Counted from the stretch's first letter, positions 6,779 through 25,136 are shown. The stretch: DNA of 64,000 bases from Rhodothermales bacterium (GCA_022821875.1 JAJECV010000142.1:16869-80868); one strand, 5' to 3'. Notes: a model not told the origin generated them from the sequence alone. Numbers and translations are program-made.

Positions 6779-6904
6779 CTTGCTTCTCCTGAAGGGGATA
6801 CAGGCATTCCTGGGAATTATCTATATTAGGTTCAATAAACGTAGAGATATAATGAGGAATGATGAATTCAGGTCAGTCAGCCTACATTGAACGATTTACA
6901 TCTG

Positions 6905-6922
6905 CATGATGAATTCATCATG
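6905..6922. promoter_or_regulatory. Perfect 18-bp palindrome catgatgaattcatcatg (possible operator)
   Basis: Verified by hand as self-complementary. The 12-mer atgatgaattca recurs at 6859-6870. It lies in the divergent intergenic region between GT4 (minus strand, start 6778) and 7047 (plus strand). Confidence 0.3.
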
Positions 6923-7021
6923 TGTTCCATGAACGGTCATGTCATATTGATCTTAATCCTGATTGACAGCATTCCAATGGTAGTCCTCAGCGACTCAAAC
7001 CCATTTAACGCAGAATTCAGA

Positions 7022-7040
7022 ATCAACGTTCAACGTTGAT
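7022..7040. promoter_or_regulatory. Palindrome atcaacgtt-c-aacgttgat (9-bp arms), 7 nt upstream of the ATG at 7047
   Basis: Arms verified as reverse complements. Its position overlaps the expected ribosome-binding region. Confidence 0.3.
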
Positions 7041-7046
7041 AGCTAA

Positions 7047-8087
7047 ATGCTGGACAAATTAGAAAAACTGTGGCACGGCATCCGGTGGACGGTTCTTGGC
7101 CGCCAGTTGACTCTGGGGGAGCAGGAAAAGTCTTCCGGTGCCCGGCGGCGAGCGATGTTCTTCAGTTTACTGGCATCGCTCATGATCTGGCTGATGCTCA
7201 GCCTGTCGGAGAATTATTATCTGCCGGTAGAATATAGAACCTGTGCAGCACTGACCGAGGATATTTCGCCTTCCTGTGTTTCGGGGATCGATGAGGATTC
7301 CGTGTTAGCGCAGCCGCTGCCGGGGTCCATTCGAGCAACCCTGTATGGTCCAGGAATTAATCTGCTGGTTCAGCGTTTTCGTGCACGCTACTGGAATAGT
7401 CCAATCACCTTTGACTCGGATCAGCCGATAGTGGATGCACAGTTACTGCTTCGGATCCCCGAAGAAGTAAGCATTGAAAGTATCATACCCGAGAGTGTCA
7501 GCTTTCAGAAAGAAGCACGAAGTGAACTTCGGCTCCCAATTGAATCACGGGTCCAGTTTGTATCCAGGCCGCCACATTTTTTTATCGGTGAGCCGCAATT
7601 TGATCCAGATAGTGTGTGGGTTTCAGGCCCCGTATCGGTCATAGATCAACTGCTGGCATGGCCGACAAAGTCAGACACGATTGTGGGAGTCGGCGATAGC
7701 GTTCATTATCAGGTTGATCTGCTGGATTCTCTCGCTGGACTGGTAAGTTTAAGGACGAAAACAACCACCGTTTCCCGACTTTCCCCGTCATTCACAGAAG
7801 GGCAGAAAGAACAGGTACGGGTAGAGATTGAGGGCATTCCGAACGCAAACAGTGTCGTTCAGCTGGCCCCCGAGTCTGTAACGATCACCTATCAAGTCCC
7901 CCTGACCCAATTCCTTGAAGCGGAGCAATCAGAACTGATCCGGGCCGTGATCTCCTACTCTGAGATCTATGACGACACCACCGGGCGCGTGAAGCCAACC
8001 GTAGAATATCCAGACGAATTTATGCTACGCCAAGTCTCCGTTTCGCCGGGGCGGCTCCGATATTTTATCAATATCGGATCTCAGTAA
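7047..8087 (+). CDS. YbbR-like domain protein with N-terminal membrane anchor
   Basis: One TM helix ('MFFSLLASLMIWLMLSL') followed by repeated beta-rich modules with 'P.SV.VSGP.SVIDQL'-type segments, as in YbbR/CdaR repeats. Confidence 0.4.
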   Translation: MLDKLEKLWHGIRWTVLGRQLTLGEQEKSSGARRRAMFFSLLASLMIWLMLSLSENYYLPVEYRTCAALTEDISPSCVSGIDEDSVLAQPLPGSIRATLYGPGINLLVQRFRARYWNSPITFDSDQPIVDAQLLLRIPEEVSIESIIPESVSFQKEARSELRLPIESRVQFVSRPPHFFIGEPQFDPDSVWVSGPVSVIDQLLAWPTKSDTIVGVGDSVHYQVDLLDSLAGLVSLRTKTTTVSRLSPSFTEGQKEQVRVEIEGIPNANSVVQLAPESVTITYQVPLTQFLEAEQSELIRAVISYSEIYDDTTGRVKPTVEYPDEFMLRQVSVSPGRLRYFINIGSQ

Positions 8088-8153
8088 CCTGACGATCCGG
8101 CAACATTGAAGCGGGGGCATGGTTCAATGGGCCGATCCTGACAACTGCGAACA

Positions 8154-8810
8154 ATGGCATGGCCACTGTGGCCCAAAAGTAAGGTTGAATACCACAGTAC
8201 TCCGCAGGGGATTCTCACTGAGTCGGGGATCTGGTACAGAACGACCCTAGACCTTTTGAACGAATATGCAGGCGCACTTTTCGAGCGTGAGCCACTTGAG
8301 TTACATCTCGCCCGATCAGATACCTGGATCCGCTCTCCTCATACACTGTCGATCTGGATACTTGCATTCGGGATCATGGTCTATCAGCCCTGGAAACTAG
8401 CGATTGTCATTCCCGTTTTCTTTCTTGTCTGGCAGATTCTGTCCCCGGCATTGGTTACCCGGAGCATGTCCTTTTTATTGAGAGTACTGGATGCCGTATT
8501 GCTTCAGGCGATTCTCTATGCAGCGACGATGTCCGTATTAGCCATGTCCGGCCGGTATGGGGCCGTTACAGTCGGAATAATGGGATTTATCTGCTTTCGA
8601 TGGGGAATCCTGACCTATTTGACGCGCCCCATTGTCGTCCGCTGCTGGAAAGCAATGTATAAACTTCCCGTACCGGATCATATATTGCGGGCGTTTATGA
8701 TTCGGAGTGCATTAAAATGTGGGATCAATCTTGCCGGCTTTGAGGAAATTGAACAGAGTGTTATTGAGAATATGTTTCGGAAGAAGACATCTGGAAGAAG
8801 GAATTCGTAG
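8154..8810 (+). CDS. Hypothetical integral membrane protein
   Basis: About four hydrophobic helices. Its stop codon directly abuts the menF ATG (tag|atg). No family recognised. Confidence 0.4.
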   Translation: MAWPLWPKSKVEYHSTPQGILTESGIWYRTTLDLLNEYAGALFEREPLELHLARSDTWIRSPHTLSIWILAFGIMVYQPWKLAIVIPVFFLVWQILSPALVTRSMSFLLRVLDAVLLQAILYAATMSVLAMSGRYGAVTVGIMGFICFRWGILTYLTRPIVVRCWKAMYKLPVPDHILRAFMIRSALKCGINLAGFEEIEQSVIENMFRKKTSGRRNS

Positions 8811-10208
8811 ATGATAAATCATGTGCATGGCAATTCAGTTGATGAATTGCGAACAGGGGTAAGGCACTTACTTGAAAGGTCAAACCATGTACCACCAACA
8901 GGGATCGCCAGTGTTTCAGTGGAACTGGATGGGGTAAGTCCGCTGGACTGGTTGATGAGCCGGCCTCAGGGGATGCGTATTTATTGGTCGGGAAGGGATT
9001 ATGGAATTGAAGTCGCGGCGTTTGGCGAGGCAGACTGTCATTATTGCTCCTCGGCCACAGATCTGCACGAACTTCGTAGTGGTCTGAGAACCATGCTGAC
9101 AGGCTGTGAGCACGGGGTACGTTATTACGGGGGAATTCGATTTGATCTGAATCAGTCGGATGAGCAGCAATGGTCATCTTTTGGTGCCTGGCGATTTGTA
9201 CTCCCGCGATTTGAGGTTCGCAGGAACGTAAAAGGCACCCTACTGCGATGTAATCTTGTACTTCCGAATGATCAGGCACAAATAGGCTTGATTCTTGAGC
9301 AAGTGGATGGATTGCATGATTCCGCCCGGAAAACAAACCCCTATTCACAGCCGCTCCGTCATTGTTTTCGCCCGGATTTTGAGGATTGGGGATTGATGGT
9401 GAATAGCGCCCTGCAGGCGTTCAGCGACACGCCATTGGATAAGGTAGTTCTGGCACGGGAGGTTTCGGCAGATTTTTCAGACTCAATTGACCCGGGATCC
9501 ATTATCCAGGCCCTGAAAAAGATCTCCCCCAATTGTTTTCATTTTCTTTTTGAGCCCGCGGTGGGCGAAGCATTTTTGGGGGCATCACCGGAACGGTTAT
9601 TCAGGCGGGAAGGGCGATCCATTGAGAGCGAGGCAGTGGCAGGCACCCGCCCGCGCGGCACATCGGATGTCGATGACACAAGAATGGTTGAGGAATTATT
9701 TCGGAGTGCAAAAGAGCAGCGGGAACATGAGTTTGTCCGAATCAGCTTACAGGAAGAAATCACCTCCCTGGCTGCACACGTAACGATGGATACCCTTCCA
9801 TCCATTATGCGTCTGGCTTCAGAGATTCACTTAGTCTCCCGGCTGCGTGCAATCATGCGGCAGGAGTATACCAGTCTGGACGTATTGCAGGCACTACACC
9901 CATCTCCTGCAGTCGGGGGGTACCCATCTGAACAGGCACTGGATCTAATTCGCAGGGAAGAACCCTTTGACCGGGGATGGTATGCGGGGCCGGTGGGCTG
10001 GCTGGGCGTGAATGAAGCCGAGTTCGCCGTTGCAATCCGTTCCGGGCTTGTGTCTGGATCCACAATCCGACTCTATTCAGGTGCAGGAATCGTCCGGGGA
10101 TCTACACCTCTGGAGGAATGGGATGAAATCGGACACAAGATCGGTGATCTGGCGCAGGTGTTAGGGTTGTATGCTTCTGCCGTTCAGACAGAATTCCAGT
10201 ATGCATGA
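8811..10208 (+). CDS. menF: Isochorismate synthase
   Basis: Chorismate-binding C-terminal motifs 'HPSPAVGGYP', 'RGWYAGPVGW' and 'AIRS'. It sits in the men gene context. Confidence 0.85.
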   Translation: MINHVHGNSVDELRTGVRHLLERSNHVPPTGIASVSVELDGVSPLDWLMSRPQGMRIYWSGRDYGIEVAAFGEADCHYCSSATDLHELRSGLRTMLTGCEHGVRYYGGIRFDLNQSDEQQWSSFGAWRFVLPRFEVRRNVKGTLLRCNLVLPNDQAQIGLILEQVDGLHDSARKTNPYSQPLRHCFRPDFEDWGLMVNSALQAFSDTPLDKVVLAREVSADFSDSIDPGSIIQALKKISPNCFHFLFEPAVGEAFLGASPERLFRREGRSIESEAVAGTRPRGTSDVDDTRMVEELFRSAKEQREHEFVRISLQEEITSLAAHVTMDTLPSIMRLASEIHLVSRLRAIMRQEYTSLDVLQALHPSPAVGGYPSEQALDLIRREEPFDRGWYAGPVGWLGVNEAEFAVAIRSGLVSGSTIRLYSGAGIVRGSTPLEEWDEIGHKIGDLAQVLGLYASAVQTEFQYA

Positions 10209-11953
10209 GTCAGAGTAATGCGGAGCGAGCACGCCTGATCATTGGGGAGTTCGTGAATTGTGGTATTGAGCAGTTCATTATTGCTTCGGGGTTTCGCAGT
10301 GCGCCGCTTGCCTTGGCCGCAGCCAGTTATCCATCTGCTCAGATAAAGGTCCATTTTGACGAACGGGGCAGTGCCTTCTTTGCACTGGGATACGGCCGGG
10401 CAGCCCGCAAACCGTGTGTCTGGGTTACCACCTCGGGGACTGCAGTGGCGAACGGCCTTCCTGCCGTGATCGAAGCTGCAATGGATGAAGTGCCCATGAT
10501 TTGTCTCACCGCAGACCGGCCTCCTGAACTTCGTGATACCGGTGCGAACCAGACGATTGACCAGATTCATATTTTTGGCCGTTACCCCAAATGGTTCGCA
10601 GACCTTCCTGCTCCCGGCGAAGAGCAGGATGAGTCCTTTATTCGCACAACCATTGATTATGCGGTGCACCGGTCACAGAACGGCCCCGTCCATCTGAATT
10701 GTATGTTCCGGGAACCGTTACTGGAGAAGAATGACCAAACCCATTCAATCCCGGCAATCCCATGGCCGGATATAGGGGATCCTCAGACTCGCTATCAAAC
10801 CACCGTTAAATCCACCGTTGATTTAGACGATGAGTTATTAGAGAAAATATCCGGTGCTCGACGTGGCTTGATTGTATCTGGGAGATTGCAAACAATGGAC
10901 GAGGCAAAAGCTATCCATGGACTGGCCGATTATTTAGGATGGCCTTTGGTGGCAGATATTTGTGCTCCCGTCCATACTGCAGAGAATTTTATTAATTCCT
11001 CCGACCTGATTGTACGCAGCAAATTATTTGCAGAGAAGTATTCTCCTGATCTAATCCTGCATGCTGGGGGCCCGTTGGTGTCCAGAGAGTTGCAGCATTA
11101 TTTAGCCAACTCCCCCGCAAAAACGTATGTGCTGGTTGCCCCGTCAGACAGCAGAATTGATCCATGCCATGTTGTAACAGATCGCATTCACGCAACCATT
11201 GCAGGTTTTTGTGATGCTCTGCTGATAGATCTACCTTCCAGCACCCGGACGGACACGGAATGGCTGAAGGTGTGGAACCGTATCTATCCGCTGGTCCATC
11301 GCGGGATTTATGACGAGATGACGGAAGACCTCTCGGAGCCAATGCTGGTGTTACTGCTTGGCAATCTCTTGAGGCGTATGAACTGGGGATTCGCGGCCAG
11401 CAGTATGCCGATCCGAGACTTACAGATGTTCTTTTATCGGAGTAAAGATTCTCCACGTTTTTTTGCGAATCGTGGCGCTAGCGGTATTGATGGCACACTT
11501 GCGACGGCGGCGGGAATCGCCCAGGTACAGACGGGTCGCGGAGTGGTTCTGTTAGGAGATTTGGCTATGCTGCATGACCTGAATTCCTTGAGTCTTCTTC
11601 GAGAGTGTGATGTTGTCATCATTGTGATTAACAACAATGGAGGCGGTATCTTTCATATGCTTCCGATTGCGCTGGAGCAGGAAGCGTTTGAAAAAGTACT
11701 GGGGACTCCTCATGACATGGATTTTCGGCGGGTTGCCGAGCAGTTTCGGATTCCCTATTCTCTGGTAAATTCCTGTGACCAATTTCGGGAGATTTGGTGG
11801 TCACTGAAGCCTAAATCAGGCCCATATCTGATTGAAGTACAAACAGATCGCACACAGAATGCCGAATTACATAACAAACTCTATCGTCTCAGCATCGAAA
11901 CCGTTGAGGAAGTGATCCAGAAACTTGAGACGGAGGATCATCCCAGATCGTAA
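10205..11953 (+). CDS. menD: 2-succinyl-5-enolpyruvyl-6-hydroxy-3-cyclohexene-1-carboxylate (SEPHCHC) synthase
   Basis: ThDP-enzyme layout with 'GASGIDG' and 'LLGDLAMLHDLNSL...NNNGGGIF'. There is a 4-nt overlap with menF. Confidence 0.9.
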   Translation: MSQSNAERARLIIGEFVNCGIEQFIIASGFRSAPLALAAASYPSAQIKVHFDERGSAFFALGYGRAARKPCVWVTTSGTAVANGLPAVIEAAMDEVPMICLTADRPPELRDTGANQTIDQIHIFGRYPKWFADLPAPGEEQDESFIRTTIDYAVHRSQNGPVHLNCMFREPLLEKNDQTHSIPAIPWPDIGDPQTRYQTTVKSTVDLDDELLEKISGARRGLIVSGRLQTMDEAKAIHGLADYLGWPLVADICAPVHTAENFINSSDLIVRSKLFAEKYSPDLILHAGGPLVSRELQHYLANSPAKTYVLVAPSDSRIDPCHVVTDRIHATIAGFCDALLIDLPSSTRTDTEWLKVWNRIYPLVHRGIYDEMTEDLSEPMLVLLLGNLLRRMNWGFAASSMPIRDLQMFFYRSKDSPRFFANRGASGIDGTLATAAGIAQVQTGRGVVLLGDLAMLHDLNSLSLLRECDVVIIVINNNGGGIFHMLPIALEQEAFEKVLGTPHDMDFRRVAEQFRIPYSLVNSCDQFREIWWSLKPKSGPYLIEVQTDRTQNAELHNKLYRLSIETVEEVIQKLETEDHPRS

Positions 11954-12020
11954 CCGAAGTTCCTGCATTCCAGTGAATTAAAAATGCCCTTGATCTCCAT
12001 GCACCCCGCGCGTCCCGGTC

Positions 12021-12050
12021 GGGCACTTCCTTCACCAAAAAGGAGTGCCC
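12021..12050 (+). terminator. Hairpin after menD (gggcact(t)cc / ggagtgccc), no clear U-tract
   Basis: Stem of 9 bp with a one-base bulge and an 11-nt loop, read by hand. Weak as an intrinsic terminator. Confidence 0.25.
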
Positions 12051-12075
12051 CGCCTTGCGGGTACCCTGCTAAAAC

Positions 12076-15000
12076 GTGAACAGTTGGAAAGCATCCATGT
12101 CTGATGGCGTAGACAAGCCTCTCCGTATTGCAGTTGCGCATCTGTTTACTACCGGAAGGAACACAAAGAGAGATGCAATCGTGCATCTTGCCTGCAAATG
12201 GCATGAACAAGGCGCAAACCCGCAGGAGAAAGACTGGATTGTAAATCCTGAACGGAAGATAACGCGGCGTGTCTACCGTCATACGGGGATCAGTACAAAA
12301 GAGTCTGCGGGAAAGCCGGTATGGCATGAGGTTCGTGGAGAGGTACGGTCGTTTCTGGATGAGGTGAATGTCCTTTTTGTCTTTGATTCCAACGCAGAAA
12401 GGTGGTTCCGTGATGTAGTCTATGAGGGCATTGCTCCGCCGGATATCGTTGACTTATTGGAGGCGTACAAATTTTTCCTGCCGGAGAAATCGCCTCCATA
12501 TTCAGACCTCGCAATCGTGGATATAGATTCTTCAATTCCCCAACACAGCGGCGCTCGGAAGTTGAACAGAGTGTTGTCTGGAATGTCCAGAATGCTGGAA
12601 GCGGTACTTGAAGTCATCCTGAAGCCTGAAAAGATTCCGAATGGATTTCGCACCCCAAAGTCCCATTATCCAGTCTATAACCTGCTGGACTGGTCGCTTG
12701 CCATTGAAGGAGCATCGCCCGCATTCAAGGCATTACAGAGAGTTGCCGCTCAAGCTGCCAGAATTCGGTGGGAAGCAGATCAGATGGAGGGGGCTTCCTA
12801 TCGTACTCCCGTGAAAATGGACAATGAAGAATTGTTACTGTTCATTGAACATTGGAGACCATCCAATTTAATTCGAGAGGATCGCAAGCCCTATAATGAG
12901 GATTTCATGGCAGGCGAAATACCGGAGCGGTATTCGAGGGATAAGAGCACCAGATCTCTTATTCAAGTACTTGAATTCATCCTGAAGTCTCCGGGAACCG
13001 AACCTCAGGATGCGGGGCGAGTCAAGCATAATTTAGATGCGATAAAATCTCAATGTAAGGAACTGCAGGAGTATATTTTTAGCACTTTGCGACAGGTATA
13101 TTGGATTGCAGAAGTCAAGAAGTCACCGAGTCATTCCGCTCGCTACAATGAAAAATATGAGGACATTTGTTCCGCATATTATGAATTGATCGACTGTTTG
13201 AAAAACTTTGAATCCTTATTCTTGCGGCTTGAATTAAATGAACTGTCACAACTGCCGCCAATCATTGTCAATGATGAGCACCTAGACCTCGTATCTAAAT
13301 GGAGCAAAGCATCTGATCGAATAGGAAAACTGCAACGTTCCCTGTTGAGGACAAGGAAGAAATTCCCGAAACCTGGCAAATCACTTCCAGATCAGGCAGT
13401 TCTCCGTATGGTGAAGCGGGTATTTAAGGATATGGGGACATTAAATCAAGAATACTTCGCATCGGATGATTCTATTCAAGATGGGTACCTTGAACTGGGA
13501 TTTAACATGCTGTATTCTGACAAACGCTTCAAGGAACGGCCAGAACAGAGATGGTATGCCGAGTTTATCAGCAAGGCTATAAATTTTGGCAATCAATATG
13601 TTGCGGAAGCCCGAACAGGGACAGGAAAAACACTTGGATACCTCATTCCTGCATGTGAGCATTCACGTATCAATAAGAGTCGACAGGTGATCGTGGCGAC
13701 GGCTACGATCAACCTGATGGATCAGATTCTAACCAAAGAATGGCGAACCCTGACTTCACCCCGAGGATCTCCGTATCGTGGACTGAAAATTGCAACGCTC
13801 AAGGGGAAGCGGAATTATCTGTGCGTAACGCCGCTAAAGAAACTCTTTAGCGATCTGAATTCAGACAAACATGATGACTCCGATCAGGGAGACGACAGTT
13901 TTTATGGAGATGATAGACTTGCCTGGCTCTACCTGTTCCAGATTCTCACCCGCAAGAATGGTCATTGGGATAGTGCAACTGAGTTTTATAGAAGGTATTC
14001 CCGAATCGCAAAGGAGTATCCCGTGGATGCAGAGACCACATGCAAGCCTAAACTATGCAAGATGGGCAAAGATTGTATTTACCCCCAGGCCGTTCGGCGT
14101 GCTCAATATGCCAATGTAGTAATCACCAATCACCACAAACTGGCGAATCTTGATGATGAAATCAGAAAACGTGCATCTGTCTGTATCATTGATGAGTCCG
14201 ACCAGTTTCCAGACAATTTACGATCAGCCCTGAGCGAAAGCATTACGAGAGAAGATGTATGGGATTTTCTTCGTAGAGTAGCCGGAACAAAAAAACGCCG
14301 TGGCTTTGTACAGTTATTATGGGAGAAACTTAAAGAAGAGGTGGAGCAGGGTAAATTCAAAAAAAAGAACGCAGATGGCTTATTCCGAAGCCTTAGAGAA
14401 ATTGAACAATCGTGTAATCAAATATTTTTTCGGCTCAGGGACGTAACGTTCGTAGGGGAAGATCAGTATGCAAAGCGATGGAAGGACTTGGGCCAAAGAC
14501 AGCAAAATATGCTTCAGGACATGTTAGATGACTTGGGGAGGCATCTGAACATGATTGAGCAGGAGATCAAGAAAATTTTAGACTCTGATCGGTACCGCCA
14601 AACCCAGGATCTATCTCGGAATCTATCGTCGGAAAAAGATCGCTTGCTTCAATACCGTTATGAAGTTATAGGACTCTTGGATTCAATGGAGGCAATCCTG
14701 CCTTCCATCTACAACGAAGACGGGCAGTTTATCGTTACCTATCAGCAATCTCAATTTAACTGGACGCTGGCCAAAATGCCATTCAATATTGGCGATCAGG
14801 CGCGTGATTTGGTAAAAGGCTTTGAGACCACCATCTTTACATCGGCAACTCTCTACGTAGATCAGGTTACGGATTTATTTGTCTTGGAACTGTTTGATGA
14901 TTTCACTTCTGAGTCTCCGTTTACGGCGGAAACGCGGATTTCGACTCCGTTTGAATACTCTAAACAGGTTGGTGGAGCCGTAACATCGTTCATTCCATGC

Positions 15001-15690
15001 TATAAATATGGTGCCTCCAATAGAGAATGGGGGCGGCAAGTAATAGAGACTATCGCCCTGTTGTCTATCGCTCTGGATGGGCGGACACTGGTGCTGTTTA
15101 CAGGCTGGGAGAAAATGCCCTGGATGTATCAACACATCCGGGCTATGCTGAAAAAATACGATATTCCGGTTCTGCTACAAGACAAAACGGGAAGCAGCGA
15201 AACAGTCATTGAGGAGTTTGACGGGTTGGAGGAGAGTGTGCTTTTGGGAACCGGTCGGTTCTGGACGGGGGTCAATTTTCCCGGGCCAACTCTAAGCCAG
15301 CTCATAATTGTACGACTGCCCAATGCTGCCTTAGGAGATCCGCTTGTGAGAGAACGTGAAGAGAGATGGTCACAAGATAAATTCTGGGGTTTCTGGTATT
15401 CTCAAAATACCCGGCGTAAGTTAAACCAGGGGTTTGGGCGTCTTATAAGGAAAAAAGAGGATCGGGGACTTTTTGTGCTTCTGGACAGGCGCATACTTTG
15501 TCACCAGCACATGAAGCGCCATCGAAGCGCTATCCCCGTAGAACTGAACAGCCAATTCAAGTCTCCCGTGGAACTTGCGACTTGGGGAATCAAGAGATTG
15601 GGACTTTCCCCTGAACTGAAAGAACGGGAGATCAATCTGGAGCAGGTTTATCAGGAAATCCAAGATGCATCCGAATCCATTCAAATTTGA
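12076..15690 (+). CDS. DinG/XPD-family (Rad3-like) Fe-S helicase with degenerate N-terminal DnaQ-like domain
   Basis: Walker A 'AEARTGTGKTLGYLIPA', a DEAH-type box 'CIIDESDQF', four Cys in the Fe-S position ('NYLC', 'TTC', 'KLC', 'KDC') and C-terminal 'GTGRFWTGVNFPG' plus 'QGFGRLIRK'. The start may instead be ATG 12097. Confidence 0.8.
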   Translation: MNSWKASMSDGVDKPLRIAVAHLFTTGRNTKRDAIVHLACKWHEQGANPQEKDWIVNPERKITRRVYRHTGISTKESAGKPVWHEVRGEVRSFLDEVNVLFVFDSNAERWFRDVVYEGIAPPDIVDLLEAYKFFLPEKSPPYSDLAIVDIDSSIPQHSGARKLNRVLSGMSRMLEAVLEVILKPEKIPNGFRTPKSHYPVYNLLDWSLAIEGASPAFKALQRVAAQAARIRWEADQMEGASYRTPVKMDNEELLLFIEHWRPSNLIREDRKPYNEDFMAGEIPERYSRDKSTRSLIQVLEFILKSPGTEPQDAGRVKHNLDAIKSQCKELQEYIFSTLRQVYWIAEVKKSPSHSARYNEKYEDICSAYYELIDCLKNFESLFLRLELNELSQLPPIIVNDEHLDLVSKWSKASDRIGKLQRSLLRTRKKFPKPGKSLPDQAVLRMVKRVFKDMGTLNQEYFASDDSIQDGYLELGFNMLYSDKRFKERPEQRWYAEFISKAINFGNQYVAEARTGTGKTLGYLIPACEHSRINKSRQVIVATATINLMDQILTKEWRTLTSPRGSPYRGLKIATLKGKRNYLCVTPLKKLFSDLNSDKHDDSDQGDDSFYGDDRLAWLYLFQILTRKNGHWDSATEFYRRYSRIAKEYPVDAETTCKPKLCKMGKDCIYPQAVRRAQYANVVITNHHKLANLDDEIRKRASVCIIDESDQFPDNLRSALSESITREDVWDFLRRVAGTKKRRGFVQLLWEKLKEEVEQGKFKKKNADGLFRSLREIEQSCNQIFFRLRDVTFVGEDQYAKRWKDLGQRQQNMLQDMLDDLGRHLNMIEQEIKKILDSDRYRQTQDLSRNLSSEKDRLLQYRYEVIGLLDSMEAILPSIYNEDGQFIVTYQQSQFNWTLAKMPFNIGDQARDLVKGFETTIFTSATLYVDQVTDLFVLELFDDFTSESPFTAETRISTPFEYSKQVGGAVTSFIPCYKYGASNREWGRQVIETIALLSIALDGRTLVLFTGWEKMPWMYQHIRAMLKKYDIPVLLQDKTGSSETVIEEFDGLEESVLLGTGRFWTGVNFPGPTLSQLIIVRLPNAALGDPLVREREERWSQDKFWGFWYSQNTRRKLNQGFGRLIRKKEDRGLFVLLDRRILCHQHMKRHRSAIPVELNSQFKSPVELATWGIKRLGLSPELKEREINLEQVYQEIQDASESIQI

Positions 15691-17710: not shown

Positions 17711-18228
17711 ATGGCAAATCAAATAAACAGAACGCTGGAGAGGCGATTTGCTAACTCGCTCCATTTTTTGCAGACTGCATCTCCTCCACCGGCACGAATT
17801 CTTGACCTGGGGACTCCAAATGAACTCGGCAGACGGATGCAGGCTGCAGGATACGAAGTCACAAATACGGAAGGCGATCTGGAACAGATTACGACTCCTT
17901 TGGGGAAGGAGGCGGATCTGTAACCGCATTTGAAATACTGGAGCATCTGGTTTCGCCTTCCAATGTTTTGCGTTCAATCCAGGCCCCCAGACTGGTTGCG
18001 ACCGTGCCCCTCCGTTTGTGGTTTGCTTCCGCGTATTGCAACCCATTGGACCCATGGGACCGGCATTTTCATGAATTTGAAGACTGGCAGTTTGACTGGC
18101 TCCTGGAGCATGCCGGCTGGAAAATTATCCGTACCGAAAAATGGACAAGTTATGGAGCCTGTAACGGACTTCGCCCGCTTCTTCGCCGATTTACACCTCG
18201 TTACTACGCGGTTGAAGCCATCCGGTGA
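17711..18228 (+). pseudogene. Small class I SAM-dependent methyltransferase split by a 1-nt frameshift near 17920
   Basis: The N-terminal part ('ARILDLG...GYEV...EADL*') stops at 17921-17923. The C-terminal part ('VTAFEILEHLVSP...') continues in the -1 frame from 17920. Restoring one G (ctg gta) gives a continuous protein of about 172 aa. Confidence 0.55.
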
Positions 18229-18264: not shown

Positions 18265-19287
18265 TCAGAGTGCACGCAGAACGGATAAGTTCAGATCAGA
18301 TTTCTTGATCATACGTCTACCCGATAGCAGTTCCGGACGATTCAATGGGAGCGGATCATTGAGTACATCGTGTTCAAATACATTATAGGTATCCAGACCG
18401 TGTGCTTCATCGGGAATGGTTTTCGCTAATTCAACTAGCCCCAGCATTCCGACACCGGATTCATGGGACGAACTGATGATACATCGAATCTGATCAGACT
18501 GCGCCTGACGAATTGTTTCAACGGTTCCGGTGATCCCTCCTGAAAGGGTGGGTTTCAGAACATAAACATCTGCAAGTTGCCGGTATTGTTCTGCTCCAGG
18601 TTCTCGAAGAGTTTCATCTAGGGCCAAGGGAATATGACTGGATCGGGCAAACGCTGCAAGGTCAGCCGGATCCTTCAGCGGTTCTTCAATATAGCCGATG
18701 GACAGGTTACGTGTACGCTCAAGGAATATCTTGGCAACTTTGAGTGTCCATGTCCGGTTTGCGTCAATACGGATCTCCAGATCGGGATGTTCTCGACAAA
18801 CCGAATGTACAAATGCAAGGTCATCGTCCAGTGCCCGCCTTCCAACCTTAATCTTTACAGCTTGGTATCCCTGGAGCGCAATCATGGGCAGGGCATTTTT
18901 GTAACTTTGCTCGTTCAATAATCTGCAACAGGTGACCGGTAACGCTTCAGTTGCTGCCTGATTTCTTACGGCCGCCTTCAGGTTAAATTGAGCAAGTTCA
19001 AATCCAAACTGAACGGAAGGAAAGAGATTGGAGATGTCAAAATCAGTGGACGCTGCCGGGATATCTGGAAGCGATTTTGCGAGGCTGATTGCCTGGGACT
19101 GCACTTCCAGGATTGATTCCCGGCTGAATCCTGGAAGTGGTGCAATATCTCCCCAGCCTTCATCCGTTCCACTCTGAAGGCAAACTAGTATCCCATTCCG
19201 ATATGAATAGAACTGACTGGCCAGTTCAAGGGAACGAGTCAGCGGCAATTGATATCGATAGAGTCTGACCGAATCAATGATTCTCAT
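18265..19287 (-). CDS. menC: o-succinylbenzoate synthase (enolase superfamily)
   Basis: 'VKIKVGR', 'IRIDANRTW', 'YIEEP' and 'ALDET' are metal-ligand and catalytic segments of the MenC/muconate-lactonizing-enzyme (MLE) subgroup. It sits in the men context. Confidence 0.75.
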   Translation of the reverse strand: MRIIDSVRLYRYQLPLTRSLELASQFYSYRNGILVCLQSGTDEGWGDIAPLPGFSRESILEVQSQAISLAKSLPDIPAASTDFDISNLFPSVQFGFELAQFNLKAAVRNQAATEALPVTCCRLLNEQSYKNALPMIALQGYQAVKIKVGRRALDDDLAFVHSVCREHPDLEIRIDANRTWTLKVAKIFLERTRNLSIGYIEEPLKDPADLAAFARSSHIPLALDETLREPGAEQYRQLADVYVLKPTLSGGITGTVETIRQAQSDQIRCIISSSHESGVGMLGLVELAKTIPDEAHGLDTYNVFEHDVLNDPLPLNRPELLSGRRMIKKSDLNLSVLRAL

Positions 19288-19489
19288 TTTGAAAAATTCC
19301 TGGCTTGGGATACATCCATGTCTGATTTCGGTTTCCCTTCGACCAACGATTACTTTATCCGGCGGGGATAGCCGGTGAACCTAGTATATGCTGCCTGGGG
19401 AGATTAGTGTACATCCATGATGGCGGTACAGTTTAATCTGGCTGCAAACGGAACATCGGGCATTTCTGCTTGTATAGACTCGTATTGGG

Positions 19490-19732
19490 GTGTTGCGATT
19501 GTGTAACTTTGATATCTCCAATCATGGTAACGGAGTCAAATTTGGATCTGGAATGAAACCACCAATAGTAAGAGTATCTAACCAACTGTATGATGGATGC
19601 CCAAGTAGTCATCATGCAGTCTTCGGTGTAGCAGTACATCCAGGGGTAAATGGTCACAGCGTGAACGATACAATGGTGGAAGATTTGCTCTGCCACCAAA
19701 TGCGGGAAGATAAGACAAGAACATACCAGTAA
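19490..19732 (+). CDS. Hypothetical small protein (80 aa, GTG start; or 59 aa from ATG 19553)
   Basis: It ends 4 nt before the next ATG (19737). Its composition is more ordinary than that of the overlapping minus-strand ORF 19433-19750, which is very W/C/M/H/Y-rich. Confidence 0.3.
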   Translation: MLRLCNFDISNHGNGVKFGSGMKPPIVRVSNQLYDGCPSSHHAVFGVAVHPGVNGHSVNDTMVEDLLCHQMREDKTRTYQ

Positions 19733-19736
19733 ACGA

Positions 19737-20066
19737 ATGAAACGCATCATTCACTACCATATTGACATTGTTAACTATAAAACGGGAGCTCGTGCTTGGC
19801 TTGTACGTTTGGATGATGCCAGAGATGATGCAGAGGTAGTAGCTGATGTGAGTAGCGTTATACGGGAAATCCATGCAGGTGACCACGATGAGGAGTTAAG
19901 GCGGACTTCGGTGGTTGAAGAGGGACAAAATCTGACCGAATTAGATATCAGGGTAAATGCACTGGATAATTGGGATACGTTGATTGCGTCGGTTCCAATC
20001 AATGACAACGGAATAAGCCCTAGATACAGGTATGAAACTGCAAGCGTTAAGGTGACTGACGAATGA
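19737..20066 (+). CDS. Hypothetical acidic protein (109 aa)
   Basis: Clean ATG ORF with plausible soluble-protein composition (D/E-rich). Second ORF of the same-strand cassette. Confidence 0.5.
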   Translation: MKRIIHYHIDIVNYKTGARAWLVRLDDARDDAEVVADVSSVIREIHAGDHDEELRRTSVVEEGQNLTELDIRVNALDNWDTLIASVPINDNGISPRYRYETASVKVTDE

Positions 20067-20100
20067 TCTTGGAACAACGGAGATTTTGACGGAATCGACT

Positions 20101-20391
20101 ATGTCAGAACATCAAGCGCATCGGACAAGAGAGCGAGTAGGTAAAATCTCGATATCTGCATTAAATGAGCGGAATCCTATCATACGCTTTTTTGATTCAA
20201 TGAGAAATACGCTGCACTGTATGCGAATAGAATGGCAAACGCTGGTAGTGATTTGCCACAAAGCTGACTTATGGATGATACTTTCGGGCTGCGGTGACCG
20301 ATGCACTTTTATACAAGCACACCGGCCGATCAGTGTGAGATGTATCGCAGTCCTTGGTGCTTCATTATCTTCAAACTACTCAAGGCCATGA
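20101..20391 (+). CDS. Hypothetical protein (96 aa; Cys/His-containing), coding status uncertain
   Basis: Its TGA stop (20389-20391) overlaps the ATG (20388-20390) of the next ORF as ATGA. No motif recognised. Confidence 0.25.
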   Translation: MSEHQAHRTRERVGKISISALNERNPIIRFFDSMRNTLHCMRIEWQTLVVICHKADLWMILSGCGDRCTFIQAHRPISVRCIAVLGASLSSNYSRP

Positions 20392-20648
20392 AAACTATCT
20401 CTCCAGTTCGTATCGCTAAAATAGAAGATACCGGCAGGAAGATTATTCTTGATGATAACTCCGAGTGGGAGGTTTATTTTGATGATATTCCGACATTAAA
20501 CAAATGGTTTCCCCCTAACTGGGTTATTGTATGGCGGCGAGATCAGCTTGACCCTTGGAAGTGGGGAACCCAAGCTCTCTATCCTTATGTAACGATCATA
20601 GAATATCTTGATTCAGGCAGAAAGGTGGGAGTGAAGCAGATAAAATAA
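20388..20648 (+). CDS. Hypothetical Trp-rich small protein (86 aa)
   Basis: 'KWFPPNWVIVWRRDQLDPWKWG'. It has AT-rich third codon positions like the FRG gene and sits 25 nt upstream of the FRG gene. The track's longer 20301 start gives an implausible N-terminus. Confidence 0.5.
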   Translation: MKTISPVRIAKIEDTGRKIILDDNSEWEVYFDDIPTLNKWFPPNWVIVWRRDQLDPWKWGTQALYPYVTIIEYLDSGRKVGVKQIK

Positions 20649-20673
20649 TTATTTTCCTTTTCTATAAAATAAA

Positions 20674-21540
20674 ATGATTAAGGAAATAAATTTCAAGAAT
20701 TCAGATTCTTTATGGAATAAAATAACCAATTTTCAAAAAACATCTGATTCTAATAATGAATTAATTTATAGAGGACATTCAAGTTCTAATTGGGATCTTT
20801 TGCCAACTGTCTTGCGTCGCGAATCAATCCTTCAATTAAAGGAAGTTAACGGAAATTCCATTAATTGTGAGCACTTAGTATCAAAAGAATTTAAGCTACT
20901 ACAAGATTTCATACATAGTTGCGATCAAACAGGTATTACTGTCCCAAATGACTCTGTGATGTTTCGTAGGGAAAACCTTACGCAGTTAAGTTTGGAGAAA
21001 TATATTGAACAGCCCGAAAAATGGCCCAATGAGAAATTACTAGAAACGATGGCTATGGCTAGACTCCATAGTCTTCCCACGAGACTTCTTGATTGGACAA
21101 AAAATCCCTATATCGCCGTGTATTTCGCTGCTAGTCAGGCATTAAGGGGAAGGCGAAATTGGCATGAAAAGCAGAAGCTCTCCATACTTGTATTCAATAA
21201 AGGATTGTCAACTAATAATGAATTCGGTCCGATAAAAGTACTTCGTATACGTGGTGCTATTTCCCAGAATATTGTTGCTCAACAAGGTCTTTTCACAGTT
21301 CACCCGATACTTGAAAAAAGAGGCGAACCCTTAAGTATCAGAAGTTTAGAGAATTATCTACCTGATAATATATCAATTCAGAAACTAACTGTACCAATAA
21401 GAGAATCCGTAGGCTTATATAAACTGTGCAATCAATTTGGCTTTAACGCAGCAAAATTATATCCCGGCACAGACGGTGCCAGTAGGTCTGTCATTGAAAA
21501 TCAATTGTACACCCTTGCCAGCCGAGGGAGAGAAGAATAA
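20674..21540 (+). CDS. FRG domain-containing protein
   Basis: 'LIYRGHSSSNWDLLPTVLRR' (the F/Y-R-G motif), 'ARLHSLPTRLLDWTKNPYIAVYFA' and 'NIVAQQGLFTVHP' match the conserved blocks of the FRG domain (Pfam PF08867, from memory). Confidence 0.85.
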   Translation: MIKEINFKNSDSLWNKITNFQKTSDSNNELIYRGHSSSNWDLLPTVLRRESILQLKEVNGNSINCEHLVSKEFKLLQDFIHSCDQTGITVPNDSVMFRRENLTQLSLEKYIEQPEKWPNEKLLETMAMARLHSLPTRLLDWTKNPYIAVYFAASQALRGRRNWHEKQKLSILVFNKGLSTNNEFGPIKVLRIRGAISQNIVAQQGLFTVHPILEKRGEPLSIRSLENYLPDNISIQKLTVPIRESVGLYKLCNQFGFNAAKLYPGTDGASRSVIENQLYTLASRGREE

Positions 21541-21738
21541 ATATTTATGCAGATTATGTACTTCGGCACATTAAAAACATAAAATTAAGCAGTGGCTTAC
21601 TGTCCGTCATGTCTGCGGAGCATTCAATCTCCAAGATAACAGTACGATTTGATAAGGCTCACCACTGAGTACTGTGCGTCTTTGTTACACTTCGAACCGA
21701 TAAAAGAGTCTGACGTTTTCTAATTGAGCAGCGAATAC

Positions 21739-23010
21739 ATGTCTAACCATTCTCCGTTCGGCGTGGGGATTTGTCTCAGAACCAATTGGCAGAGCGTTGG
21801 GATCATTCTGGAGTGCATCCGGAAAGAAATGCCCGCGTGCATATTAAGCTGGCAGTGGCCGGGGGCTCTGGTGGATGAGGCGTTGAGCAGGTTGGGGATT
21901 GAGAGCGTTATCACGACAAGAAAAGATCTCAAGACTAGGCAGATCCATCCAGACTCCTGTGAGAGCAGTCGCATAGATTACCGGAAGGTCCTTCAGGGAT
22001 CGGATAAAATTGCGACCATCCTGCATACATCAGGCACCTCTAATGAGCCCAAAGCCGTGGTGCATACGCTGGACAATCATCTTGCAAGTGCCCGGAATGC
22101 CTGTCTGAAACTGAATCTGAACCGCAAGGATCGATGGCTGTTACGTCTTCCTCTGTGGCATGTATCCGGTATGAGTATCGTCTTCCGATGTCTGATGTCT
22201 GGTGCTAACGTCGTGATTCCTGACCCGGAAATGCCACTCATCAAGGCATTGCACACTCACAGGATCACCCATGTATCCATGGTTGCCGCCCAGCTTATTC
22301 AGGTTATGGATCAGCCGCCCCCCGCAAGTATGCGTGCTGCCATCGTAGGAGGCGGCCCGACCCCTCCGCCTGTTCTGGAACAGGCGCTGAGAACCGGCTG
22401 GCCGGTTCGGACGACCTACGGCATGACCGAAACGAGTTCCATGGTGACGCTCAGTGATGAAAAATTCCCCCCTGACTCCGCAGGACCGGCGATTCAGGGG
22501 CATGAACTTAAGATTGCCGAAGATGGCACCATCCTTGTCCGAAGTTCGGCGGTCTGTCTGGGATACTTACGTGAAGGCAGTCTGCAAAGCGCGACCGATG
22601 ACGAAGACTGGCTTCATACCGGAGATCTGGGCCGATTCGGTCCAACCGGAGAACTCTATGTTCTAGGGCGCAAGGACAACATGTTTATTTCGGGTGGGGA
22701 AAATATCAGCCCTGAAGAAATTGAACAGACACTGCACCGCCTCCCTGAAGTGCAGGAAGCCATTGTGGTCCCGGTGCCTGATCCGAAATTTGGTCAGCGT
22801 CCAATCGCCTTTATCCGTGGGGATGCCGACTTTGAACGCCTCCCGCATGTGCTTGCGCAATATCTCCCGAAGTTCAAGATTCCAGTCGTTTACCCCTGGC
22901 CGACAGAGATCCCTTCAACGTCTGTTAAGCGGAATCGCAAAGCATTCGCGAATTTGGCAGTTCGGCTCCAAAAGAGGCAGTCTCCCATACCGGGCGGATC
23001 GTTATTTTGA
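21739..23010 (+). CDS. menE: o-succinylbenzoate-CoA ligase (short adenylate-forming enzyme)
   Basis: 'ILHTSGTSNEPKAVVHT', 'TYGMTETSS', 'HTGDLG', 'GRKDNMFISGGENISPEEIE' and 'VKRNRK'. The start is ATG 21739, or TTG 21724 in the track. Confidence 0.8.
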   Translation: MSNHSPFGVGICLRTNWQSVGIILECIRKEMPACILSWQWPGALVDEALSRLGIESVITTRKDLKTRQIHPDSCESSRIDYRKVLQGSDKIATILHTSGTSNEPKAVVHTLDNHLASARNACLKLNLNRKDRWLLRLPLWHVSGMSIVFRCLMSGANVVIPDPEMPLIKALHTHRITHVSMVAAQLIQVMDQPPPASMRAAIVGGGPTPPPVLEQALRTGWPVRTTYGMTETSSMVTLSDEKFPPDSAGPAIQGHELKIAEDGTILVRSSAVCLGYLREGSLQSATDDEDWLHTGDLGRFGPTGELYVLGRKDNMFISGGENISPEEIEQTLHRLPEVQEAIVVPVPDPKFGQRPIAFIRGDADFERLPHVLAQYLPKFKIPVVYPWPTEIPSTSVKRNRKAFANLAVRLQKRQSPIPGGSLF

Positions 23011-23141: not shown

Positions 23142-25136
23142 ATGGACTGCCTGTGCTGTGTATCCGGTTAACGGCGATACAGGTTCATGCGCAGGATAGG
23201 GAAGTGCGCGTAAGCGGAGAATTCTCTCAGCCGCGTATTCAGGCGCAGACGGCAAACTCCAAACCAAGCAGCAGCATCGGTGTATCTAGACACGGTGCAC
23301 AGGTCGTTGCATCCGAAGCAGGTTCGCTGGCATTGGTGAGCCTTTATAATTTTTCCGGAGGCACCGCCTGGTTTGATCACTCTGGACGGCTCCAGAAGCC
23401 GGTCTCACAGTGGTATGGGATCGTATTGAATGAGCAGGGTCATGTTCTCTCAATTGATCTGAGCGGCAATGGACTGGCTGGGTTCATTCCACCCGGAATA
23501 TGGATAATGGATAAGATGGAAATCCTGGATCTCTCGGAGAACCAATTGGATTTTCTGAGCACCGCGTCCATCGCCAACCTGACCTCACTGAAAGAATTGA
23601 TTCTTTGGGGAACCGGCTCTCCGGCCCAATTCCTCCCGATCTAGGACAAATGCCTGCACTGGAAAAACTGTCCCTCTTCCAGAACCGGTTAAGCGGGCAG
23701 ATTCCTCCGGAATTAGGGGCAATGAAGACACTGAAGCAACTGTACCTTGATTTCAACGGGCTGGAGGGCAGGATCCCTGCTGAATCAGGAGAGATTCCAG
23801 GGCTCACGGAATTGTTTCTGGATGCAAATAACCTGACCGGGAGACTCCCGGTGAAACTGACGCAGTTACGCTCCCTCGTCTCACTTTTTGCCGGGTTTAA
23901 TCATCTGGTCGGCCCGGTTCCGGCAGAGTTGACAGCAATGCCAGCACTGGAGAATTTGTCTTTTGAGGGGAATCAAGATACCGGCGATATCCCGGCGGAA
24001 CTTGTCATGGCCGGTAATCTGACCGAATTACATCTCGAACATAATCGTCTCACGGGTCCCATCCCGGAAGGGTTTGGTCAATTGTTTTTGCTGACTATCC
24101 TGGATTTAGAGGGAAATCAGCTGACGGGAAGCCTGCCTGCAGATATAGGAGACAGCCGAAAGATGCGATACCTGAATCTCTCCCGTAATCAACTCAAAGG
24201 ACCGGTCAATTCACTGCCGTGCACATTAGATGAGCTCCATTTGCGCCAGAATCAACTGACCGGCACGTTTTCCGCTGTCGTTGCCCCCCTCACATCGCTC
24301 CACAAAATTGATCTTCGGGAAAATTCCTTTGCGGGAACCCTTGAAGGTGTGTACAGCCATCAGAGACTGGTTGAGATTCGGCTGAGCAATAACCGGTTTA
24401 CCGGCGCATTTTCACCCGCGCACAGGACGATGTACTATCTGGAGCATCTGGATATTGCCAGTAACAAACTCCATGAAATCAGGCAGTTCACAGAATGGGA
24501 ATTTTGGGATACGATCCAGGTTTCGGGGAATCAGTTTGACTTTACATATCTGCTGCCGAATGCCGCACTGATCATCGCGGCCTATTTTCGTATGCCCCGC
24601 AGGACTCTCTATTCACCCAGATAACAGGAAATGGAACCGAAAGAATGTTCAGCGCAGCTGATTCGGCGGCTGGAAATACCTACCAGTGGTATCGAAACGG
24701 AAACGCCCTGGATGGCGCAAATTCAGCCTCCGTGCGTATCAACATCCGTGAACCCATTGCGGAGTATTACTGTGAGATAACCAACGATATGCTGCCAAGT
24801 CTGACGCTCACCGGCACGGTCAAGTCAGCCGATGCCATCTCTACAGATATCGATCATTTGCCGGAGAAAATCGAACGGATCACCGTTGGTCAGAGTTCCC
24901 CCAACCCTTTTCAAACAGAAACCGTCATCCCGATCATAATGCATAACCCTGGCCGGCTAAAAATTTCGATCTGCGATGTGACGGGCCGGGAGACATTCAC
25001 GCTCATTCAGCGTATCATGAGCGTGGGTGAGCATGTCATACCGGTTCCCGCCGCCGGACTCACTTCGGGAATTTATCGCTATGTAGTTGATGTCGGGGGA
25101 GACCAGATTGTGCATTCCATGGTGCTCATCCAATAG
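23142..25136 (+). pseudogene. Leucine-rich-repeat surface protein with Ig-like module and T9SS C-terminal sorting domain, split into 3-4 frames
   Basis: There are 24-residue plant-type LRRs ('L..L.L..N.L.G.IP..LG'). The frame breaks at the G4 run 23607-23610 ('LKELILWG|NRLSGPIP') and at the T4 run 24585-24588 ('AAYF|SYAPQDS'). The last fragment carries 'NTYQWYRNG' and a T9SS tail ('SSPNPFQTETVIPI...GIYRYVV'). A possible signal peptide 'MDCLCCVSG' lies in yet another frame (23142-23171). Confidence 0.7.

Follow-up and report, generated by a model that had tools for sequence, protein, structure and literature searches.

Results

The menC-menE gap holds a cassette of three selected genes

We analysed a 64,000-nt stretch of DNA from an uncultured Rhodothermales bacterium (hereafter the window), which stems from a metagenome assembly and has metagenome-assembled genomes of Rhodothermales as its nearest genomes. 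The subject of this work is the DNA between menC and menE, two genes of the menaquinone (men) biosynthetic cluster that are divergent and separated by 2,451 bp, as the preliminary description of the locus had put it (about 2.4 kb, with menE starting near 21739). The gap carries a cassette of three genes (Table 1), namely o109 and o86, which encode small proteins named after their lengths, and a gene for a 288-aa FRG-domain protein (hereafter FRG). Based on the composition of the insert, its variable occurrence in relatives and the linkage of o86 to FRG, the cassette is best read as a toxin-antitoxin-like two- or three-gene variant of the candidate defence system PDC-S15.

Within the gap, two independent gene callers predict the 109-, 86- and 288-aa open reading frames (ORFs) only. 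In comparison with the cassette of the relative L004 (comparison loci are designated by L numbers), which is about 90% identical to that of the window at the nucleotide level, the ratio of non-synonymous to synonymous substitution rates (dN/dS) is around 0.2 for each of the three in the annotated frame, being 0.23 for FRG, and about 1 in the other two frames, hence all three genes are under purifying selection. The preliminary description had seen five plus-strand ORFs with operon-like packing, two of which do not stand up as genes. The ORF at 19490-19732 (o80) is ruled out, as its third codon is an in-frame stop in L004, and so is a minus-strand ORF overlapping it (19433-19750), by two stops in the same relative. 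The ORF at 20101-20391 (o101) is likewise ruled out, with a dN/dS of 0.59 over 20101-20387 and no call from the gene callers; the substitutions in this segment fall 16/14/16 over the codon positions, and at 84% nucleotide identity to L004 it is the most diverged piece of the cassette. Since o80 and o101 are not coding, the 4-nt gap and the ATGA stop/start overlap that had been taken as signs of coupling each join a real gene to a non-gene. The statement that the four upstream products match nothing holds for o109 and o86. In its corrected form, the cassette has o109 first, then 321 nt of non-coding spacer, and lastly o86 and FRG, 25 nt apart.

No structured RNA was detected in the gap with Rfam at E <= 1, and the 321-nt spacer has no excess structure (RNA fold z-score -0.02); a spacer of ~200 nt is present in the corresponding place of the second cassette of L005. 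Scans of the gap for promoters and terminators gave counts at or under the shuffled expectation, with no convincing terminator between FRG and menE, and the three occurrences of the Bacteroidota-type TAnnTTTG motif (one at 19504) are statistically uninformative. Only the first ~60-150 nt of the menC-proximal DNA can be aligned with the empty site of L006 and with L007, and the divergence of the intergenic DNA from this site prevents an exact placement of the insertion boundaries.

The insert is AT-rich and compositionally foreign. Compared to the 34 long ORFs of the window (mean GC content 0.520, standard deviation 0.035, minimum 0.449; mean GC content at third codon positions, GC3, 0.530, minimum 0.431), the GC content is 0.367 for FRG (GC3 0.304), 0.410 for o86 (GC3 0.402) and 0.445 for o109 (GC3 0.409). 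FRG is thereby placed ~4.4 standard deviations under the mean, with a concordant sliding GC profile, so the full computation agrees with the foreign character first suspected from hand counts of a few lines. In the other hosts examined, o86 and FRG are likewise poorer in GC than the remainder of their locus, with one exception, the FRG of L051 (0.525 vs 0.525).

We also considered whether the cassette has no current function, being either a remnant in decay or an artefact of assembly or annotation. Two of the five ORFs are indeed spurious, and a nearby gene of the window is frameshifted in a sequence that derives from a metagenome assembly. However, three genes are under purifying selection, all invariant FRG residues are present, the identical sequence was assembled in independent ENA and Logan records, and related cassettes lie on complete 3.7-4 Mb contigs, which together make a functionless remnant very improbable in our view.

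The gap is a variable hotspot in the examined lineage

Relatives were located via MenC and the window proteins were then mapped onto them, sampling the site in about nine genomes. menC is found in all relatives and forms the conserved left flank, while menE forms the conserved right flank, its start being the ATG at 21739 according to the gene callers, for a product of 423 aa. Between these two genes the content differs from genome to genome (Table 1). An empty site, which the preliminary description had named as a check on the insertion, is present in L006. The FRG cassettes at the men site in L037, L004 and L005 are 55-88% identical to that of the window, and L007, L008 and L009 carry other cargo, with GmrSD_N and GmrSD_C domains according to Pfam and PADLOC matches, i.e. 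type IV restriction-like defence genes. With variable cargo that includes an empty state, and with recognised defence genes as the other occupants, the site is a genomic defence hotspot. Taken together, the menC-menE gap is a variable, recombination-prone accessory hotspot in the examined Rhodothermales lineage.

The identity profiles of the cassettes are mosaic. A stretch of ~900 bp of the window (19500-20400), spanning o109 and the spacer, is 99-100% identical to L005 with flanks at 91-96%, and looks like a recent recombination or gene-conversion tract. Relative to L004, identity is lower in the cassette (84-92%) than in the flanks (93-98%). Based on these profiles, cassettes are most likely exchanged through the conserved flanks, which would also explain the absence of a visible mobility gene. 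In agreement with the preliminary description, there is no tRNA in the window, no integrase, transposase or other recombinase domain in any gap ORF as judged by Pfam, and only short, imperfect matches at chance level as att-like direct or inverted repeats flanking the gap; the cassette does not have the make-up of a self-mobile element such as an integrative element, a transposon or a prophage. In L005, the first of the two tandem cassettes consists of an o109-spacer-o86 part near-identical to that of the window and an FRG cut after codon 40, and the second of a diverged o109'-o86'-FRG' at 62%, 50% and 57% identity, an arrangement suggesting that cassettes stack when a newcomer inserts in the 5' portion of an FRG gene already in place.

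The location inside the men cluster is the sole evidence for a role of the cassette genes in menaquinone metabolism or its regulation, to which we assign a next to negligible probability: the site is empty in L006 and has other cargo in L007-L009, the composition is foreign, and the o86-FRG pair also occurs in unrelated contexts away from men genes.

o86 accompanies FRG and is retained when FRG is lost

o86 lies immediately 5' of FRG and on the same strand in eight cassettes (window, L004, second cassette of L005, L037, L040, L041, L050 and L051), with a spacing of 23-33 nt or, in L041, an overlap of 4 nt. The eight cassettes occupy at least six unrelated flanking contexts. In L040, the pair lies between a DUF5131 gene and a MatE gene, while L041 is a region rich in insertion sequences (IS) with two tandem o86 copies, the second of which overlaps the FRG start. 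In L051, where FRG has a HEPN_AbiU2 gene and an integrase as neighbours, o86 is a fused tandem of 200 aa. Across the eight cassettes, pairwise o86 identity correlates strongly with pairwise FRG identity (Mantel r = 0.90, p = 0.0002), hence the two genes are inherited as a unit. A full HMMER pass over 1.84 billion representative proteins yielded an o86 family of 11 clusters, and all of these, examined or mapped, adjoin FRG or FRG remnants. Viewed from the FRG side, o86 is present in 8 of the 10 contexts examined for FRGs at ~47% identity or more; L042, where FRG is found without o86, branches at the base of the clade. The neighbourhood comparison put forward in the preliminary description for the 86-aa ORF is thereby answered: o86 is a conserved upstream partner of FRG.

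We note that small genes also occur directly 3' of FRG, i.e. a 140-aa gene in L038 (6880-7302, 9-nt gap), a locus that lacks o86, and a 94-aa gene in L050 (4236-4520, 11-nt gap).

Every orphan o86 precedes a 5' remnant of FRG, each of a different length (Table 1). Judging from these endpoints, at least five independent deletions have removed the body of FRG and spared o86. When toxin-antitoxin pairs decay, the toxin can go first and the antitoxin cannot, and the retention of o86 after the loss of FRG matches this logic.

The same features could be those of a selfish toxin-antitoxin addiction module that has no role in phage defence and whose loss is penalised at the hotspot, in keeping with the architecture of a small 5' gene and a larger downstream enzyme gene, the 'antitoxin' copies kept after decay of the 'toxin', and the association with IS elements and an integrase. 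However, FRG is often deleted (five events), so that addiction would be weak, the men site otherwise holds bona fide restriction-type defence genes, and PDC-S15 was nominated for being embedded in BREX, DISARM or restriction-modification (RM) systems (bioRxiv 10.1101/2024.01.29.577857). We consider a purely selfish module decidedly unlikely. Many toxin-antitoxin systems also act in defence, and the selfish and the defence readings thus overlap.

Properties of the three proteins

FRG passes the Pfam model PF08867 with 62.1 bits compared to a gathering cut-off of 25 (E = 9.8e-17, residues 29-156), in agreement with the domain recognised in the preliminary description. It furthermore matches 14 PADLOC PDC-S15 models, the best of which (PDLC04938, E = 2e-31) aligns protein residues 15-276 with profile positions 50-269 of 276, and phrog_4962 (E = 3e-58), a PHROG profile with ~170 extra N-terminal positions. 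Among 52 homologues, 19 columns are invariant, and ten of these are polar (R33, R48, E72, D84, R98, T136, R137, D140, S197 and Q203), a conservation pattern that fits an enzyme. R33 and G34 of the YRG motif (Y32-R33-G34, 'LIYRGHSS') are invariant and Y32 nearly so. The invariant R33, S197 and Q203, along with E72, D84 and D140, are candidates for a catalytic triad of the R/H - S/Y - E type, as in an ADP-ribosyltransferase (ART). An AlphaFold2 (AF2) model of FRG computed from the 52 homologues has a predicted local distance difference test score (pLDDT) of 92 and a predicted template modelling score of 0.88. A match to PDB entry 9j1k_L, 'FtbL' (GSISxNVVAQQG motif, E = 0.038), a tail-like bacteriocin component, was treated as a chance match.

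The FRG family is large and mobile, with more than 493 relatives in a metagenome scan, 213 stretches in viral contigs or prophages, and 268 clusters at E <= 1e-3. One of the relatives is gp17 of Salmonella phage SEN8 (L212, NC_047753.1 10986-11921), a lone FRG gene whose product is 38% identical to the FRG of the window. The gene is antisense between a gpS-like and a gpV-like gene of this P2-like temperate phage, a classic moron position.

The AF2 model of o86 (pLDDT 91) has six strands and one helix arranged as a small beta-barrel. No significant match to this fold was found in PDB or BFVD, the best being barrels of the oligonucleotide/oligosaccharide-binding (OB) type such as IF1, with E >= 0.39, and the sequence gave nothing significant in Pfam, NCBIfam, PADLOC, PHROGs, PDB sequences or plasmids. 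As such, o86 is a previously undescribed partner family with a predicted small beta-barrel fold.

For o109, there is no match in Pfam, NCBIfam, PADLOC, PHROG or a phage collection, and nothing beyond three near relatives. These homologues, in L004 (86%) and twice in L005 (100% and 62%), are always upstream of o86-FRG, and a non-coding spacer of 200-320 nt separates o109 from the pair in every known copy. From this distribution, we take o109 to be a lineage-restricted accessory gene that travels with the o86-FRG pair.

Other insertions and variable genes around the men cluster

The window harbours a 1204-aa DinG-like helicase gene with a GC content of 0.46 (12076-15690, plus strand), the product of which has an N-terminal DEDDh/RNase_T exonuclease domain and matches Pfam Helicase_C_2, DEAD and RNase_T as well as PADLOC typeIV_DinG (E = 8e-87). 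In the window, L004 and L005 alone, the gene separates menD from menB, which adjoin each other in L006-L009 and L037, and it is a second insertion into the men cluster. Between menA and menC, a methyltransferase-like gene is split across two frames in the window (17711-17923 and 17968-18228, plus strand) and forms a single intact ORF of 172 aa in L004, L005, L006, L007, L009 and L037; the split gene is either a frameshift pseudogene or an assembly error. Further insertions occur in L008 between menC and menA (11094-15443), where a 369-aa DUF4268/NucS-like gene with a match to PADLOC PDC-S11 (E = 2e-159) accompanies two transposases of the ISL3 type. Hence, defence candidates and IS elements gather in several of the gaps between men cluster genes. 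Directly 3' of menE, leucine-rich-repeat (LRR) proteins are encoded (window 23605-24624 and neighbours), which are kept in relatives with varying length and copy number, the relative in L037 being a 689-aa LRR/Por_Secre_tail protein.

Table 1 Features of the menC-menE gap in the window, its occupants in relatives, and FRG remnants downstream of orphan o86 copies.
Feature	Position	Strand	Description
menC (o-succinylbenzoate synthase)	18265..19287	-	Pfam MenC_N and MR_MLE_C; NCBIfam TIGR01927, 192.6 bits (cut-off 130.55)
menC-proximal intergenic/leader DNA	19288..19736		includes the doubtful ORF o80 (19490-19732); no family match, not called by gene callers
o109	19737..20066	+	109 aa, acidic, isoelectric point 4.8, net charge -9; called by gene callers; dN/dS 0.21
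Non-coding spacer	20067..20387		321 nt; covers most of the former ORF 20101-20391
o86	20388..20648	+	86 aa, six Trp, isoelectric point 7.9; called by gene callers; dN/dS 0.19
FRG-domain protein, presumed effector	20674..21540	+	288 aa; PF08867; PADLOC PDC-S15 type
menE-proximal intergenic DNA	21541..21738		indel-rich relative to L004 (76 gap columns); unalignable with other relatives
menE (o-succinylbenzoate-CoA ligase)	21739..23010	+	TIGR01923, 330.7 bits (cut-off 330.15); Pfam AMP-binding
L006 gap			empty, 253 bp
L004 gap			same cassette; proteins 86-88% identical
L005 gap	6621-9553	- (of locus)	two tandem cassettes
L037 gap			o86-FRG only (48% and 55% identity), on a 3.76-Mb contig
L008 gap			intact 672-aa GmrSD_N-family gene (PADLOC HEC-05, E = 2e-40) and o86 remnant
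L007 gap			GmrSD gene of the L008 kind, interrupted by an ISL3 element; one o86 copy on either side
L009 gap			different GmrSD gene (PADLOC Orf5, E = 1e-123), broken by two IS elements
FRG remnant, L008			~10 codons; only the C-terminal ~68 aa of o86 detectable
FRG remnant, L007b			~28 codons; o86 intact
FRG remnant, L005a			40 codons; o86 intact
FRG remnant, L007a			~46 codons, internal stops; o86 intact
FRG remnant, L047-49			48 codons; o86 intact

Discussion

The preliminary description interpreted the gap as a conflict or defence cassette inside a biosynthetic cluster. Its core is strengthened by the empty site, the variable defence cargo and the o86 partner, for a cassette from which two of the proposed ORFs have to be removed. 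Based on these findings, we consider it moderately probable that the cassette is a horizontally acquired conflict module in a cargo-exchanging defence hotspot, with FRG as an NAD+-directed ART effector, o86 as its neutraliser or regulator and o109 as an accessory. Such a module would operate as follows. The cassette would have been acquired horizontally into the recombination-prone menC-menE hotspot. In the cassette, o86 would be co-transcribed just 5' of FRG as its cognate partner, most likely serving as a neutraliser or regulator in the manner of an antitoxin, which holds FRG inactive up to the arrival of a trigger, for instance infection by a phage. FRG, the effector, would then act on NAD+, with either NADase or ADP-ribosylating activity, and o109 may be a lineage-restricted accessory of the pair. 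Mobility genes are absent from the cassette, and its turnover would proceed by homologous recombination via the conserved men flanks and through replacement by other defence cargo. The chemistry and toxicity of FRG, its neutralisation by o86 and any anti-phage effect are put forward here as parts of a model.

The proposed chemistry builds on work of the Aravind group, which assigns the Frg domain to the ART superfamily and predicts that it is an antiviral effector, possibly an NADase (PMC9503650). Our modelling data are compatible with membership of FRG in this superfamily, the assignment as such resting on that paper: ART toxins (TreX, TreTu, pertussis S1, PltA, ParT and NatT) are over-represented among the best weak fold matches, at ranks 1-3, 9, 14, 17, 23, 36 and 47 among the 50 listed PDB matches, none of which is significant.

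Several observations weigh against this proposal. The FRG model has no significant fold match in PDB (best Foldseek E = 0.11, with a template modelling score on the query of 0.20 for this match and <= 0.21 throughout), and a sequence profile search of PDB found no homologue. With fold matches this weak and an empty profile search, the ART assignment is compatible with, and not independently established by, our data. In the searchable literature, no experimental test of any FRG protein for activity or defence was found, in line with the view of the preliminary description that the domain has no established function; the match to PDC-S15 and the ART-superfamily prediction nevertheless take FRG beyond the mere family name given there. 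Sequence and fold searches revealed no recognisable DNA-binding domain and no known antitoxin domain or fold in o86, and o109 is known from four copies only (window, L004 and two in L005). Moreover, the sites at which incoming cargo recombines, and not selection, may in part account for why o86 is kept. Finally, o86 and o109 are both absent from all 160 FRG loci at <=39% identity in the metagenome and viral scans and from the FRG loci of Aeromonas and Pseudomonas syringae, and ~165 distant FRG loci lack o86 overall. Within the o86-linked clade, L038 has a nested FRG without o86, in an IS21-disrupted region, that keeps every invariant residue. As L038 and the distant loci lack o86, this protein is not universally needed to tolerate FRG.

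It is thus conceivable that FRG acts alone, as a single-gene PDC-S15 system, and that o86 and o109 are hitch-hiking or regulatory genes, e.g. a clade-specific transcription or translation leader. The ~165 loci without o86, which include the SEN8, Aeromonas and Pseudomonas genes, and the apparently intact FRG of L038 would agree with such a scenario, as would the persistence of orphan o86 copies, since o86 may then have a function independent of FRG. However, strict adjacency, fixed spacing and co-divergence over at least six contexts are hard to obtain without functional coupling, and the o86 family occurs essentially only beside FRG or FRG remnants in all 11 clusters examined or mapped. Hence, we regard a solitary action of FRG as unlikely in the clade studied here.

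Alternatively, o86-FRG may be a two-component NAD+-directed abortive-infection system, in which o86, being more than an antitoxin, senses a phage product or couples FRG activation to infection and the acidic o109 serves as a further modulator. We treat this as a tentative possibility, rather unlikely as it stands. If correct, the sensor role of o86 would provide the first mechanistic handle on FRG and PDC-S15, and the o86 barrel would represent a new antitoxin or sensor fold.

A conserved small partner that co-diverges with FRG and outlives it points to toxicity, and a need for restraint, in at least one FRG clade. The o86-FRG pairing, together with its asymmetric decay, offers a simple experimental route into the widespread FRG domain, and the new small beta-barrel family of o86 joins the candidate antitoxins or regulators. 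The site between menC and menE represents a clean natural example of a defence hotspot in a biosynthetic cluster, which is useful for the study of cassette turnover and unsurprising in kind.

Comparison with known systems

PDC systems are 145 untested candidates, nominated for their location inside BREX, DISARM or type I RM loci (bioRxiv 10.1101/2024.01.29.577857). The cassette resembles PDC-S15 in that its FRG matches the models of this system and Pfam FRG, and in that it is located among defence genes and mobile DNA. In contrast, PDC-S15 is defined as a lone gene, while the FRG of the window and its subclade at ~47% identity or more have o86 upstream, to which the lineage of the window adds o109; neither of the two is represented in PADLOC, Pfam, NCBIfam or PHROGs. 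As regards the single-gene trait, the distant members are solitary, the subclade of the window has o86 as a conserved partner, and the FRG of L038 persists without it. The preliminary description had allowed for the cassette being an already described system, and this is the case for FRG as a PDC-S15 match but not for o86 and o109.

ART-type toxin-antitoxin and NADase systems (ParT-ParS, RES-Xre such as NatT-NatR and MbcT-MbcA, and DarT-DarG) share with the cassette a small gene 5' of a gene for a predicted NAD+-using ART enzyme. ParT and NatT are among the best weak fold matches of FRG, and in degenerate loci, the upstream gene outlives that of the enzyme. The close 5' position of the small gene relative to the larger one, 25 nt here, is furthermore a trait of type II toxin-antitoxin systems. 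However, FRG has no significant sequence or fold match to the toxins of these systems, the o86 beta-barrel is dissimilar to the Xre/ParS helix-turn-helix and macrodomain antitoxins, and FRG is often found without such a partner, the toxicity of FRG and its neutralisation by o86 being putative.

The phage FRG genes (phrog_4962 and SEN8 gp17) are homologous over the whole of FRG and occupy accessory, moron-like positions; they differ in being without o86 and o109, and in the longer N-terminal part of the PHROG profile. As for defence hotspots between core genes, the men site has the same flanks with varied cargo, mosaic identity and no integrase or att repeats, but it lies inside a biosynthetic cluster of an uncultured lineage and its gaps are small (0.25-6.3 kb).

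In conclusion, the FRG family is already catalogued as a defence candidate, so that the finding does not open a new category. Its novelty lies in a PDC-S15 variant of two or three genes that includes an undescribed partner family, and in a well-resolved hotspot in the men cluster.

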